Made by a program: the position numbers and the translations under genes | Assembly (NCBI GenBank): GCA_041486085.1 | Contig: JBGPKU010000008.1 | Location: 2,806 to 66,805, forward strand | Direction of reading: 5' to 3' | Length of the DNA stretch: 64,000 nt | DNA from: Candidatus Limnocylindria bacterium | Lineage (GTDB): Bacteria > Chloroflexota > Limnocylindria > P2-11E | Shown: positions 53,301-59,179 of the stretch, one piece after another | Position numbering within the stretch: the stretch's first letter is position 1 | Layout of the letters: each line of letters starts with the position of its first letter | The notes under the pieces: generated by a model | Seen by the model: only the letters and a program-made list of their open reading frames with translations | The model's database searches: none | Told to the model about the DNA's origin: nothing

Positions 53301-55848
53301 GCGTGATCTGGGCGTCGGTGCGGTACAGGTAATGGAAGCGGCTCTCCGAAGCCTCCGCGCTCTGCTGGACGTGGACGAACGACGCCTCGCGGCGAGCCTG
53401 TCCCGCGGCGGTGGTCGTCAGCACCTGCGCGTCGAGGTGCAGCTGCAGGCTCGTGTCCCAGTAGCCGAGCATCAACGCGTGCCGCAGGAGGACGAAGAGC
53501 AGCGCATCGGGGGCGCGGTCTTGAGTGAAGCCACGCTCGAGCCGAAGATCTTCAAAGGAGCGCGCGGCGTCGATGAGCCACTTGATGTAGTTGCGCCCGT
53601 CGGGAGTCCAGACCCGGATCGCATCGTGCTCGGAGAGCGGCCGATCGTCGATGATCGGGCCGTTCAATCGGGTGGAGCGCGACAAGAAGAACTTCGCGAG
53701 CGCGTCGGGTTCGACGTCCCCGGTGTAACCCAGGCGCCGCAGAAGGTCCATGGCGGGTTGCTGCAGATGGCGCGTCTGCAGGCTCTGGAAGATCACGGCG
53801 GCGAGGCCGTGCAGCTTGGCGGCGTTGAAGAGGTGATCGAGGCTCTCGGCGTAGCGCTGATGGAACTCGACCGACGCCGGGTGTAGGCCGATCACATCGA
53901 GCAGGACCTGGTGCGCGTCACCCGGCTTTCCGACGTACGCGACCTGATCGGCGAGCTTGGTCCAGTCCTTTCGGACCGTCGCCAGCACGCGGGCCAGGCC
54001 GGACATGACCTGGGCGAGCTGGGGCGGCGCCTCAAGCCCCGCGATCCTCGGCCACTCGGCACCGCGCTCGCTCGGCTGATCGGCGCGATCCGGAGGACTG
54101 ATCGGGAGCACGCCGTACGGCTGATGACCGATGCGCAGGCTCGGGAGGAATCCGCGTCCGCTGACGAAGTGTTGGGCGAACCAACGCGTGATCTCGATCT
54201 GTTCGGGCGTGAAGACCGGGGTGAGCATCGTCTCCATCGCGTAGCCGAACGTCGCGGGCCACAGCGCGCGGTTGAGCGCCCGCGCCTCGGCCTGATCCTG
54301 GCCGGACGCGTGGGCCACGCCTTGAAAGACGTCGAGGCCTACGCCCAGCGCGTCAGCCAGCCACTGGCCGTCACGCCTCTTCCACCAGTCGGCCGTCGCG
54401 GCGAGGGTGCTGGCGCGAGCATCGAATGACGCGTCCGGGTCATCCCTTCGGCTGTACCCCGAGTCCGCGGCCTCCGTGTTGTTGGTCGGCGTGCCCTGCG
54501 GAACGAACGCGAGGCCCGCGCTGCCGTAGCGATGATGCGTGAGCAGCTGCTCGAGCGCGGTCGCCGCTTCATCGGGGCTCTTCGCGAGCCGCAGTCCGAG
54601 GACGACCAGCCGCTCGATCGGCGAGGCGAGGTCGACCTTGGCGGAGTCCAGTCGGACCTTGATCCCCATGCCCACGCTCACGGCCTCGTCGAAATCGACC
54701 ATCCAGCGCATCTCTTTGGGCACGATCAGCTCACCGTCGTCGTCATGCTTGAGCTGCTCGTCGAGGGGAGATGACGGGTCCGGGCCGGCGATGAGATCGG
54801 CCGGGATGACCTTGCCCATTCCTTCGAATACGACGCGGCCGGACTGATAGCCGACGGCGACGAAGCGATCGGGCAGCAGGCGCACGCGCGGCGGTTCGGT
54901 CCAGGAGCGCGTCTTGGTCGCGAGCGCGGGCAAGCTCAACCAACCCACGCTGACCGACACGTCGGCGCGCGCAAGCGGAGCGGCTGGAGCCGCGGAGAGA
55001 TTGGCCGGCTCGAACTGCGCGATCAGCGCGACGGGGTCGATGCCGAGCGCGCCCGCGAGCGCGGCCCGGGCACCATCGATCCCCGTCTGGTCGCCCTCGG
55101 CTCGCCAGACCGCCACCCAGTAGTCGCTCAGAGCGTCGCGCGCCTGCGCCGCCGGCGGCGCGTCCGTGACGATCACGAGGATGAGGTCCTCGGCCTTCGG
55201 CTTGACCGGCTTCTCGTTGAGGTTCGCGGGCTGAAGCTCGTGAAGGATCCACGCTGCGCGGCCGCTGCCATGGCTCGCGCACAGGTCCCGCCAAGCCGCG
55301 CGCTCCTGCGCGTCGATTCCACCCGCCGCCCAGGCGCCGATCCAATAACGGCGGCCGCTCGCGGCCTCCGTGTCCGACAGCATCGCCTCGAAGGAGTCGA
55401 CCGAACAGTCGTCCGGATAGACGCGGATCCACAGCTCATCCGCGGGCGCGAGCTCGTCGGCGATGTGGTGAAAACGGGTCTCCAGCCGAATGGGAAGGAG
55501 GAGGATCGGTATCGAACTTTCGAGCGCGGGCGAAACGGTGCGAGGATCGCTGCGGGTCTCGTAGCTCGCGACGAGCCGGTCACGCTCGAGTCGCGCGGTC
55601 TCGAGCTCCTCGCGTGCGACGCGACTCTCACGGCGCGCGGCCTCGAGAAGGGCCTCCGTTCGCGCCCGCGCCTCGGCGGAGCTCCGTGTTCCGACGCGCG
55701 CCATTGCGGTGAGCTCCGCCTCCAATCGGCGGACGCGCTGCTGGATCGAGCGAGCCTTGGCTTCGGCGGCATCGGCAGCGTCGCGCGCGCGCGCGAGGCC
55801 GCTGCGGGCGCGGTCGAAGTCGGCGAAGGCGCTCGTGTCTCTACGCAT
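50314..55848 (-). CDS. Giant-operon gene 4: 1844-aa hypothetical protein with an N-terminal coiled-coil-like segment
   Basis: An uninterrupted 5.5-kb ORF. Its ATG overlaps the upstream stop (ATGcgTAG). The first ~90 aa are Ala/Arg/Glu heptad-like, followed by PILLLPIRLETRF and WIRVYPDD. No NTPase, protease or repeat motif was seen. Confidence 0.85.
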   Translation of the reverse strand: MRRDTSAFADFDRARSGLARARDAADAAEAKARSIQQRVRRLEAELTAMARVGTRSSAEARARTEALLEAARRESRVAREELETARLERDRLVASYETRSDPRTVSPALESSIPILLLPIRLETRFHHIADELAPADELWIRVYPDDCSVDSFEAMLSDTEAASGRRYWIGAWAAGGIDAQERAAWRDLCASHGSGRAAWILHELQPANLNEKPVKPKAEDLILVIVTDAPPAAQARDALSDYWVAVWRAEGDQTGIDGARAALAGALGIDPVALIAQFEPANLSAAPAAPLARADVSVSVGWLSLPALATKTRSWTEPPRVRLLPDRFVAVGYQSGRVVFEGMGKVIPADLIAGPDPSSPLDEQLKHDDDGELIVPKEMRWMVDFDEAVSVGMGIKVRLDSAKVDLASPIERLVVLGLRLAKSPDEAATALEQLLTHHRYGSAGLAFVPQGTPTNNTEAADSGYSRRDDPDASFDARASTLAATADWWKRRDGQWLADALGVGLDVFQGVAHASGQDQAEARALNRALWPATFGYAMETMLTPVFTPEQIEITRWFAQHFVSGRGFLPSLRIGHQPYGVLPISPPDRADQPSERGAEWPRIAGLEAPPQLAQVMSGLARVLATVRKDWTKLADQVAYVGKPGDAHQVLLDVIGLHPASVEFHQRYAESLDHLFNAAKLHGLAAVIFQSLQTRHLQQPAMDLLRRLGYTGDVEPDALAKFFLSRSTRLNGPIIDDRPLSEHDAIRVWTPDGRNYIKWLIDAARSFEDLRLERGFTQDRAPDALLFVLLRHALMLGYWDTSLQLHLDAQVLTTTAAGQARREASFVHVQQSAEASESRFHYLYRTDAQITQDPDRTIADHIGRLIGGQGASSSSARLADQVEALDLLKDVPTARLERCLAEHIDLASHRLDAWLLGLVHYRLAASRYGADGGAPRRGIHVGAYGCLEGLSRKSAQLTVAEPPGALGGAHGSKDPVLHDPGNGGFIFAPSMNQATTAAILRAGYLANASAATPGALAVNLSSDRVRVALGVIEGIRNGQPLGALLGYRLQRGLHERDDALELDRYLYALRKLFPLVADQMASTKTGPDVPIEAVEASHVVDGLKLVDHVRTTGNRTYPFGLALPSASTDEAAAISLEVEHLHDAYDALADLALAESVHQSVLGNYDQVGATLDAYAKGTFPPEPAVIRTPRSGFGLTHRLGLQLEAGVDPAVSPLAGIPMSPRAQAQAMVNSWLAAQLPDPDQVVCLVEWIDPVDSSAHQVAVTQRQLQLQPIDLVHIAVLDGEAAMSELDDRILRYVFATQNPRSDAAIALRHTARQAGRITFFELAPLVRSLQALLLRSRPLRPTDIALTGEAERKADATATIDRDRVRLVRDGMNALLTDVTNAVVAAPVDAAIDVVTSLFERAARFGLAQVGWGFMYEWRRRAFADIVDRFSTVIQRWKEHLAGFDQGLIDFDANAGGLSDLEQFTLLGRLDLLIAAAAMEPRPATPIAYRAALLLRRNALANKRGDLETIVATADPRLAPLLAAAQAALPLNAFDPAPFAIDDLPRDVDRFLADAQARVDVLRKELAKRVQAADALLAEHDAASDPPARVSALQNAGVALLGEETRLIPEFTVSAQHAAELGNALDASRSGALTAYVRSAHGVTFPVDDWLHGVARVREKVFEWEQTVLMTEVLSGAELDLLPVQLPYRLGESWLALEFDPTKPPDGERLLYTAHHAVPFDPTRATCGLLLDEWTEVIPTREETAGLAFHYDRPNSEPPQSWLLVTPSAGQPAWGWNELLGAIDEALALARLRAVEPAQVEPTPYARFLPATTSAAMLYGISIAANLARVNNFAGELRDRG

Positions 55849-58800: not shown

Positions 58801-59179
58801 GAACGATCAGCGTGATCCACGGCCGCAGCCTCCGACCACCGCCATCTGGAGCCGCGGGGGTGTAGCGCCACGGCAGGTCTTCGTCGTAGAAGTCGACGGC
58901 CGCCAGGTAGTTGGGCTCGAAGTTCGTGATCCAGTCGCGCGGCTCGGTCCGAACCACGGCGCGGGACTGCAGACCGATGACCTCGCCGGGTCCGTACAGC
59001 TGCACGTCGCGCTTGATCTCGGCGGGGACATGGCTGCCGTCGAGCAGGCGCGCGTCGAGCTCGATCTTCACCTCGATGCTCGCCCGAAGCGTGCCGGCGG
59101 GGGCGGGATCGGCCGCGGTGATCCGATTCGCCAGGCCCTGCCGAACCCAGGGGAGGAACGTGTAGCTGCCCTTGCTCAT
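55841..59179 (-). CDS. Giant-operon gene 3: 1112-aa hypothetical membrane protein (central hydrophobic hairpin)
   Basis: ATG 59179 (MSKGSYTFLPWVRQGLA) overlaps the upstream stop as ATGA. There is a single 42-residue hydrophobic stretch WLPYLIVLLALGIALVLFFLLAAVAVAAAVVLAGLALAAWLV at about aa 610-652, with large soluble regions on both sides. Confidence 0.85.
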   Translation of the reverse strand: MSKGSYTFLPWVRQGLANRITAADPAPAGTLRASIEVKIELDARLLDGSHVPAEIKRDVQLYGPGEVIGLQSRAVVRTEPRDWITNFEPNYLAAVDFYDEDLPWRYTPAAPDGGGRRLRPWITLIVLAEDEFAPAGSAREGGLPLIAIPVAQHAALLPRADDLWAWAHVHVNRSLGANPAEIVSSDTAAVAGRLGAVLAESADLAYSRLVCPRKLEPNKAYHAFVIPTFEAGRLAGMKLDPALASSATASAWAAYANRPDADRFPVYYRWFFRTGAIGDFEYLVRLLQPKPVDRRVGVRDMDVQRPGSNLPGIVDPALHGALKLGGALRVPRSSLSPDELRAVERDESWAQPYPHPFQRQLASFINLNDDYASMPAAAANVATGLPGVGSDPDPVITSPLYGRWHALTSRLLYGRDKSPLPDAANWVHELNLDPRFRVPAGFGTLVVQDKQEDLMASAWDQVGDVLEANRRIRRLQLAQQTSLVWHRVHLQPFVERSPTHALALTAPLHGRALASTGVTLRTRVAASAVPPSLLSSPMRRMLRPRGPLMRALAFGPLAPRGDLIERVNSGELAPVPPKTTPAGVVTVRDLAAGALPGATPRWLMELLRRAPWLPYLIVLLALGIALVLFFLLAAVAVAAAVVLAGLALAAWLVRTRGQIARSDALTEEGQTPAATAGLPASPDFAVTAPSSGPGAGVTLSPGGPDSAEAVRFKTALTNLHALLEATRTADRVGENGPPRPRLDLAAEAAGVVRALDPAVTITRRASANIDIPARIRAERPDPLTEAWAYPVFDIPMYRPLADLSGDLLVPNVNLIETNSVTLLETNQKFIEAYMVGLNHEFARELLWREYPTDQRGSSFRQFWDVSAFLAAAGSDVEALREKLRDIPPIHRWPRSSALGAHDARERPGDNEEEVVLVIRGELLKRYPNAVIYAQRAEWARTAGKIDPSVERHLIEIGEAEEADPPRSKLRTPLYEAKIEPDIYFFGFDLTVPEARGGSGDAPDDPAGWFFVLKERPGEPRFGFDEKSADPLVVWNDLGWDRVPMAGAFVRPASPNIAIPGGSPPDQQEKEPQRLDDAKVAWDATVSAAELAYILYQAPVMVAIHAAEMLPNA

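Follow-up and report, generated by a model that had tools for sequence, protein, structure and literature searches.

The window analysed here is a 64,000-nucleotide stretch of DNA from Candidatus Limnocylindria bacterium (contig JBGPKU010000008.1 of GenBank assembly GCA_041486085.1), and it carries five tightly packed genes on its minus strand (genes 1-5). The operon is one copy of the uncharacterised DUF6603 (PF20248) cassettes, in which gene 3 follows the DUF6603 gene and is itself followed by the same two large genes. The gene 3 protein of 1112 residues contains a single hydrophobic segment at residues 610-653. This segment would fold into a two-helix transmembrane hairpin, set in the flexible loop that connects two large soluble regions. 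On balance, this hairpin probably serves as a cytoplasmic-face membrane anchor for the cassette complex, an accessory element that has been lost repeatedly.

The hydrophobic segment and its conservation

Residues 610-653 of gene 3 (APWLPYLIVLLALGIALVLFFLLAAVAVAAAVVLAGLALAAWLV, DNA 57221-57352) are a 44-residue run without charge, with LLRR before it and RTRGQIAR after it. The Kyte-Doolittle 19-residue maximum of gene 3 is 3.19, and every other window stays below 1.6. On the Hessa scale, the best 19-mer of gene 3 sums to -5.68 kcal/mol and those of genes 1, 2, 4, and 5 to +3.4 to +8.6, which leaves the segment alone among the five operon proteins in having a favourable membrane-insertion energy. 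The N-termini of all five proteins lack a signal-peptide-like hydrophobic core. Hydropathy, the Hessa sum, and the orthologues described below thus confirm what the first-pass annotation, a reading of the DNA letters, had reported as a 42-residue hydrophobic stretch between two large soluble regions. Its basic flanks and the absence of any other hydrophobic stretch or signal peptide in gene 3 were also correctly described.

The segment was compared across 80 genome loci from 12 bacterial phyla, which hold 78 intact gene 3 orthologues of 41-62% identity. Of the 78, 77 have a hydrophobic stretch at this alignment position, which is therefore more than a chance feature of one copy. The orthologues with the stretch span 12 phyla and include both monoderm and diderm bacteria. 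Since the position is kept across both types of phyla, the segment fits the cytoplasmic membrane. No other membrane-like segment is found in the genes of the 78 orthologous operons. The earlier description of the hairpin as the only membrane element in the system is accurate for this operon and its 78 orthologous operons; it does not carry over to a large part of the family, from which the element is missing.

The alignment columns of the segment are 88% hydrophobic and 3.9% charged. Residues match the commonest residue of their column in 41% of cases within the segment, versus 64-66% in the flanking domains. As read from the alignment, this conservation of character without conservation of sequence is the pattern of a lipid-facing helix. 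Among 139 hairpin-bearing homologues, the median distance between the charges that bracket the segment is 43 residues, with 32-55 residues in about 96%, and no internal charge is present in 118 of the 139.

Hairpin geometry and predicted topology

An AlphaFold2 model of gene 3, built from a 94-sequence alignment, has a mean predicted local distance difference test score (pLDDT) of 86.3 and a predicted template modelling score (pTM) of 0.70. Around the segment it shows a helix at residues 601-609, a helix at 613-630, a turn at 631-634, and a helix at 635-663, with pLDDT of 79-89 and less confident coil on both sides. Model and hydropathy divide gene 3 into the following regions.

57470..59179, minus strand: N-terminal soluble region, residues 1-570; in the AlphaFold2 model, a conserved N-peptide that is disordered, mixed alpha/beta structure at 34-330, and long helices at 426-570
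57353..57469, minus strand: pre-hairpin linker and juxtamembrane amphipathic helix, residues 571-609 (ending in TPRWLMELLRR); model helix at 601-609
57290..57352, minus strand: hydrophobic helix 1, residues 610-630, Leu-rich; supported by hydropathy and a model helix at 613-630
57278..57289, minus strand: hairpin turn, residues 631-634 (LLAA in this copy), an AlphaFold2 turn
57221..57277, minus strand: hydrophobic helix 2, residues 635-653, Ala/Gly-rich, with small-xxx-small motifs; model helix at 635-663
57062..57220, minus strand: basic helix extension and Pro/Gly/Ser-rich flexible linker, residues 654-706; pLDDT 62-81, coil at 677-706
55844..57061, minus strand: C-terminal soluble domain, residues 707-1112; modelled as alpha/beta, pLDDT mostly 85-97

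Family data agree with a turn in the middle of the segment. Hydrophobicity dips there, and in the 139 homologues the fraction of Gly, Pro, Ser, Thr, and Asn is 0.34 at the dip versus about 0.1 in the helices; many orthologues carry Gly, Pro, Ser, or Thr in the turn itself. For every 15 residues, the two flanks of these homologues contain 2.56 and 2.83 Lys plus Arg, versus a background of 1.51. Aromatic residues, W612 and W651, stand at both predicted cytoplasmic ends of the segment. The distance from P581 to T671 has a median of 93 residues in proteins with the hairpin and a median of 28, going down to 3-16, in those without it. Because some hairpin-less homologues join the two gene 3 domains by only 3-16 residues, these domains must abut. 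The insert leaves and re-enters at one point, and is therefore a hairpin and not a single span. The modelled helix-turn-helix, the central dip, the Lys/Arg-rich flanks, and the natural deletions independently support the hairpin proposed in the first-pass annotation. Taken together, alignment and model make it well supported that both gene 3 halves lie on the same side of the membrane.

In Sec/YidC insertion, a long N-terminal part without an export signal stays in the cytoplasm. As 609 residues precede helix 1 and contain no export signal, the N-terminal half would be cytoplasmic, and the C-terminal half would therefore be so too (N-in, C-in).

The two helices are not equivalent. In this copy the Hessa sum is -5.9 for helix 1 and -2.25 for helix 2, and the family medians are -4.67 and -1.41. 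The sum is below 0 in 129 of 131 homologues for helix 1 and in 103 of 131 for helix 2. Helix 2 is richer in Ala and Gly (31.7% vs 18.1% in helix 1) and in small-xxx-small motifs (2.46 vs 0.82 per half). This asymmetry fits a signal-anchor helix 1 combined with a packing helix 2. In Nostoc sp. 106C (locus L011, 3312-6800), the hairpin is tandemly duplicated and gives a 67-residue uncharged span of two near-identical halves with four predicted helices. The Nostoc copy is the sole clear length variant, and its helix number is again even. Seven cases scored as 'single-helix' are weak second helices or decayed copies.

Loss of the hairpin across the family

Several observations weigh against a membrane anchor for the complex. 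The hydrophobic segment is absent from 65 of 132 full-length proteins (67 by a second threshold) among the 150 best cluster representatives. It is also absent from the plasmid copies of Streptomyces europaeiscabiei and Salinigranum marinum, and from a 'Bacteriophage sp.' copy of gene 3. The first-pass annotation had named homologues without the insert as evidence that would refute its reading, and in the wider family the representatives just counted and the Streptomyces and haloarchaeal plasmid copies are such homologues. In hairpin-less cassettes, no substitute membrane segment is found in genes 2, 4, and 5, or in the upstream gene at 18 of 19 loci. The turn of this copy, LLAA, is without Gly or Pro; sequence alone fits a full span and a half-membrane re-entrant hairpin alike; and the model was used for secondary structure and pLDDT. 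Insertion of the segment into the membrane is a prediction from sequence and model. An association of gene 3 with the proteins of genes 2, 4, and 5 is likewise predicted, because of their strict co-inheritance, the overlapping or nearly abutting gene junctions, and the conserved disordered N-termini of genes 3 and 5.

Hairpin-less gene 3 copies that were checked in context belong to the same four-gene cassette. Since these cassettes show no substitute anchor, tethering cannot be essential. A FastTree phylogeny of 211 proteins, computed without linker columns, gives 25 changes of hairpin state; with shuffled labels the mean is 55.6 and the lowest value 47. In a 47-protein subset, picked after inspecting the first tree, IQ-TREE gives 20 changes, and placing all hairpin-less proteins in one clade is rejected by the approximately unbiased (AU) test (p 0.00017, 1619 log-likelihood units). 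We infer at least 20 independent hairpin-state changes from these trees. The pre-hairpin motif P.WL..LL+ is common to hairpin-bearing members of both deep clades and persists in some hairpin-less proteins, for example P0249. The hairpin appears to be an ancestral accessory module that was lost repeatedly by deletion or decay, its direction of change being taken from an unrooted tree. One orthologue of 53% identity, in a Solirubrobacterales metagenome-assembled genome (MAG; locus L049, 8406-11651), has Arg in place of apolar residues (WLLWLAAVLLRLARVARALGAARVAERLEALAAWLRAR). Judging from these substitutions, its hairpin is a decayed relic with loss in progress.

Two candidate correlates of loss were rejected. 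Envelope type does not drive it, as Actinomycetota hold both states. PhoD-like genes in the upstream 'payload' slot of the cassette lie beside hairpin-less copies only (4/10 vs 0/58), and all four belong to one clade and are not independent.

Proposed role of the hairpin

The putative anchor module consists of the juxtamembrane amphipathic helix, the Leu-rich helix 1, the short turn, and the Ala/Gly-rich helix 2 running into the basic stretch. Hung on linkers of about 30-40 residues on both sides, the hairpin would keep gene 3 on the inner face of the cell membrane. A complex of the gene 2 (DUF6603), gene 4, and gene 5 proteins with the variable gene 1 enzyme would be held there too, by way of gene 3. 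Membrane docking would tune where this machine works, not whether it works. The first-pass proposal that gene 3 tethers the other giant proteins to the membrane is plausible in this form, on the grounds of co-inheritance and gene junctions; a tether is not required, given the hairpin-less cassettes that have no substitute. A dispensable anchor makes it unlikely that the cassette is a conventional membrane-spanning secretion channel.

Alternative explanations

The hairpin might instead be a membrane-damaging or membrane-penetrating effector that is inert until a trigger and then oligomerises, either in the membrane of the producer or, after release, in that of a target. Models for such an element are the two-transmembrane-helix (2TM) effectors of abortive infection, the hydrophobic hairpin of colicins, and the channel tip of TcA. 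Facultative presence is typical of exchangeable effector modules, and the richness of helix 2 in small-xxx-small motifs favours helix-helix association. The cassette is also patchy and mobile like conflict systems, being found in 0 of 60 relatives and, on a Streptomyces plasmid, between recombinase genes. The hairpin gives weak, non-significant compositional matches to 2TM families, including SLATT_1 (E 1.2, 2 of 24 members). An effector is nevertheless unlikely. Most copies have no polar or charged residue for pore lining, the sequence is not conserved as expected of a packed or gated element, and the flanks are flexible linkers and not a shielding amphipathic-helix bundle. One would also expect 44 apolar residues in a row, bordered by basic flanks, to enter the membrane while the protein is being made. 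Furthermore, none of the five proteins has a PADLOC match, and nothing replaces the hairpin where it is lost.

Three other explanations concern the placement of the segment. It is decidedly unlikely to be a half-membrane monotopic re-entrant wedge of the reticulon or caveolin type that enters only the cytoplasmic leaflet and perhaps senses or induces curvature. The model turn of just 4 residues, all apolar in this copy, would suit a wedge, as would W612 and W651 at the cytoplasmic ends and the basic flanks on both sides; the helices, however, have 18-19 apolar residues each, enough for a full span, and the Gly, Pro, Ser, or Thr in the turn of many orthologues fits an exposed loop. A greasy helical hairpin outside lipid, buried at the interface of a multi-protein complex, is very improbable. 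AlphaFold2 models the segment confidently (chain pTM 0.70) and, as the cassettes without a hairpin show, the complex can do without a membrane, but conserved packing positions would be expected at such an interface, in place of the 41% consensus match that contrasts with 64-66% in the domains. Its 44 residues without a polar residue and its basic flanks also argue for lipid, and a structural core could not have been cut back to a linker of 3-16 residues on at least 20 occasions. Finally, a single long transmembrane span would put the gene 3 halves on opposite sides of the membrane, a topology that can hardly be correct. The 44 uninterrupted apolar residues and the lack of a central Gly or Pro in this copy are compatible with it. 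Deletion variants that join the halves by 3-16 residues are not, and neither are the family peak of helix breakers at the centre, the turn in the model, the two basic flanks, the four helices, not three, of the duplicated copy, and the absence of a signal peptide for either gene 3 half. An accessory anchor at the cytoplasmic face is thus the explanation preferred here.

Conserved residues and domains of gene 3

The C-terminal domain is among the best-conserved parts of gene 3 and includes ETNQKFIEAYMVGLNHEFARELLWREYPTDQRG, with invariant columns. Invariant residues of the N-terminal region include F8, R13, G15, W164, H168, H170, and D203. The conserved-looking strings quoted in the first-pass annotation are real and fall among invariant or near-invariant columns. 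Two clusters stand out, residues 164-172 (WAWAHVHVN) and 836-853 (GLNHEFARELLWREYPTD), in which the invariant residues are W164, H168, H170, N838, R848, and D853 and the near-invariant ones H839 and E840. The invariant and near-invariant residues of the two clusters could form a metal or catalytic site. The gene 3 sequence contains no Walker A, HExxH, or GxSxG motif, and has a single Cys in 1112 residues.

Residues 781-1035 recur alone, with 36% identity, in 'VCBS repeat-containing protein' genes on three Streptomyces longwoodensis plasmids, and are also found in Paraburkholderia caribensis. Because this part is present in other architectures, it is a mobile domain. The N-terminus of gene 3 (residues 1-13, 59140-59179) and that of gene 5 (residues 1-66, 50124-50321), whose AlphaFold2 model has a pLDDT of 79.6, are among the most conserved parts of these proteins, yet both have pLDDT below 50. 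This suggests, as far as the models go, that the two N-termini are segments that fold or dock on a partner.

Organization of the operon

The five genes are arranged as follows.

62659..64000, minus strand, past the window edge: gene 1, the variable 'payload' slot; the full open reading frame (ORF), read from the contig, has 587 residues
59176..62652, minus strand: gene 2, DUF6603 protein of 1158 residues (PF20248, E 2.7e-127), a constant partner of gene 3
55841..59179, minus strand: gene 3, coding sequence of 1112 residues, an open ORF; an unnamed family that always stands after the DUF6603 gene
50314..55848, minus strand: gene 4, 1844 residues, a constant partner of gene 3, syntenic in related loci
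48456..50321, minus strand: gene 5, 621 residues from GTG 50321, a constant partner of gene 3, also syntenic

The start ATG of gene 3 and the stop of gene 2 overlap by 4 nt (ATGA), and genes 3 and 4 overlap by 8 nt. The gene 3 product starts with MSKGSYTFLPW, and homologues share the start MSxxxTYSFLPW. As homologues begin at this same peptide, the ATG is favoured over a TTG at 59260. Gene 1 has a transglutaminase-like match (TGL PF20085, E 6.6e-4) that lies below the cut-off. Its relatives fill the payload slot in just three other loci, and other enzymes do so elsewhere.

Beyond the window edge, 5' of gene 1, lies an Arg-rich ORF of 833 residues (locus L002, 2338-4839, minus strand; window-equivalent 64532-67033). 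It has no Pfam match and no homologue in any related locus. This ORF was rejected as a cassette member, being Arg-rich, without a homologue in related loci, and probably a spurious frame; the operon therefore begins at gene 1.

Distribution of the cassette

Where the contig is long enough, essentially all of the 80 genome loci and of a further 80 metagenome loci examined for gene order have the DUF6603 gene first and then genes 3, 4, and 5 in turn, and the plasmid loci of haloarchaea and Streptomyces share this arrangement. The DUF6603 gene lies upstream of gene 3 in 78 of the 80 genome loci, and the Nordella and Corallococcus loci show the same cassette order. The gene further upstream varies. 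Those that can be named encode a subtilase, an M64 peptidase, a trypsin-like/Nal1 protein, a tyrosinase, a galactose-oxidase-like protein, a phospholipase D, and a PhoD-like phosphatase.

This genome has one cassette copy, and no cassette was found in 60 relatives, 25 of them from the same genus. The cassette is also found on haloarchaeal megaplasmids and on the Streptomyces plasmid mentioned above. In the plasmid of Salinigranum marinum (locus L166, 12790-21672), the genes after gene 3 encode a 'BGTF surface domain-containing protein' (2322 residues) and a 'lamin tail domain-containing protein'. The downstream partners in haloarchaea may differ or carry surface-type domains. A 40-kb record from a human faecal sample, labelled 'UNVERIFIED: Bacteriophage sp.' (MT835531.1; locus L168, 1-10000), contains a hairpin-less gene 3 with genes 4 and 5 and, faintly, the C-terminus of gene 2. 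Its GC content of 76.6% makes this record look more like actinobacterial DNA than like a gut phage. In an Acidobacteriota MAG (locus L047, 6575-13387), genes 2 and 3 form one frame of 2270 residues, which is either a real fusion or a MAG indel error. Given the possible indel error, this frame was not used as evidence of interaction.

The gene 3 family

Gene 3 is placed in its family by full-length homology of both halves and by its position between a DUF6603 gene and partner genes of about 1850 and 620 residues. More than 3389 homologues are present in a protein collection clustered at 90%. The best 120 are 53-67% identical across 99-100% of the query, and every named one among these is 'hypothetical'. 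A search of 1.84 billion cluster representatives gave 5719 matches, 2600 of them at E <= 1e-30. Among about 186,000 species, each represented by one genome, at least 586 encode a relative of gene 3. Chitinophaga alhagiae, Kribbella antiqua, and Nitrosomonas oligotropha are examples of cultured carriers.

Genes 3, 4, and 5 have no match in Pfam, NCBIfam, PADLOC, and PHROGs. All five proteins match 0 PADLOC-DB families at E <= 0.1, and hence no catalogued anti-phage defence system. A relaxed Pfam scan of 24 gene 3 family members (E <= 5) returned just compositional matches of 2TM families on the hairpin. Against sequences in the PDB, gene 3 as a single sequence has one chance match, a catalase at E 0.92, and the 94-sequence profile has 0 matches. 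Fold searches at E <= 0.001 found no match for the gene 3 model in the PDB (best E 0.33) or BFVD (best 0.5), and none for the gene 5 model in the PDB (best E 0.19). A literature search found no paper that names DUF6603 or PF20248. None of the catalogued families, systems, and solved folds tested takes in gene 3 and the cassette, and the sole catalogued domain within the cassette, itself of unknown function, is DUF6603 of gene 2. In contrast to gene 2, gene 3 has no place in a Pfam or NCBIfam family.

Comparison with known systems

Proteins of the atlastin/mitofusin type have a large cytosolic domain, two close transmembrane helices, and a cytosolic tail, and their flanking sequences are functionally important. 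The layout of gene 3, with soluble parts on one side and a tight hydrophobic hairpin, would be analogous to these proteins and to the dynamin-like paddle, and not homologous. Atlastin/mitofusin-type proteins and the hydrophobic 'paddle' carried by a bacterial dynamin-like protein are treated in parts of PMC5699052 and PMC6715688. Gene 3 differs from these GTPases in having no Walker A motif, Pfam match, or fold match, and its hairpin is dispensable.

According to a portion of PMC12237407, the cytoplasmic contractile injection system of Streptomyces coelicolor depends on CisA, a membrane protein. The likeness would be that of a large cytoplasmic multi-protein machine that engages the cell membrane from inside through a membrane protein. 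CisA is a separate protein, and its machine consists of phage-tail parts; it has no sequence relation to gene 3. Genes 1-5 have no PHROG or Pfam match to contractile injection or phage-tail families, and gene 3 has no BFVD fold match.

In Tc (ABC) toxins, the TcA subunit meets the membrane with a hydrophobic helical element. The cassette may be seen as analogous in that its very large proteins are inherited together and its enzymatic part can be exchanged. None of the Tc signature domains (VRP1, TcA, TcB, RHS) is found in genes 1-5 by Pfam or NCBIfam, and genes 3 and 5 have no PDB fold match. The cassette also differs in that its enzyme is a separate upstream gene and its hydrophobic element is optional. 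The 2TM/SLATT-type effectors of conflict systems resemble gene 3 in having a two-helix hydrophobic module that comes and goes. The SLATT (PF18181) match cited above is compositional and at noise level, and no profile match is significant. Unlike these effectors, the gene 3 module is internal to a protein of 1112 residues, and PADLOC has no match to it.

Significance of a probable, optional anchor

The gene 3 family has thousands of members, no name, no matching solved structure, and no paper that was found. Within the cassette, the hairpin is the sole feature that ties it to a cellular place. Hairpin-bearing and hairpin-less natural variants offer a ready experimental contrast between tethered and untethered forms.

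Subtilases, M64 peptidases, PhoD-like phosphatases, tyrosinases, and phospholipase D usually act outside the cell. Quite speculatively, the cassette might be a new class of cytoplasmic machine with an exchangeable enzyme, in which the hairpin is the docking or exit point at the cell membrane and its repeated loss marks a switch between membrane-docked and free, for example lysis-released, delivery. If this were true, such a machine would be an undescribed route of protein delivery or self-destruction. For a delivery or cell-suicide machine of this kind, the optional anchor would be a key to how and where it fires.

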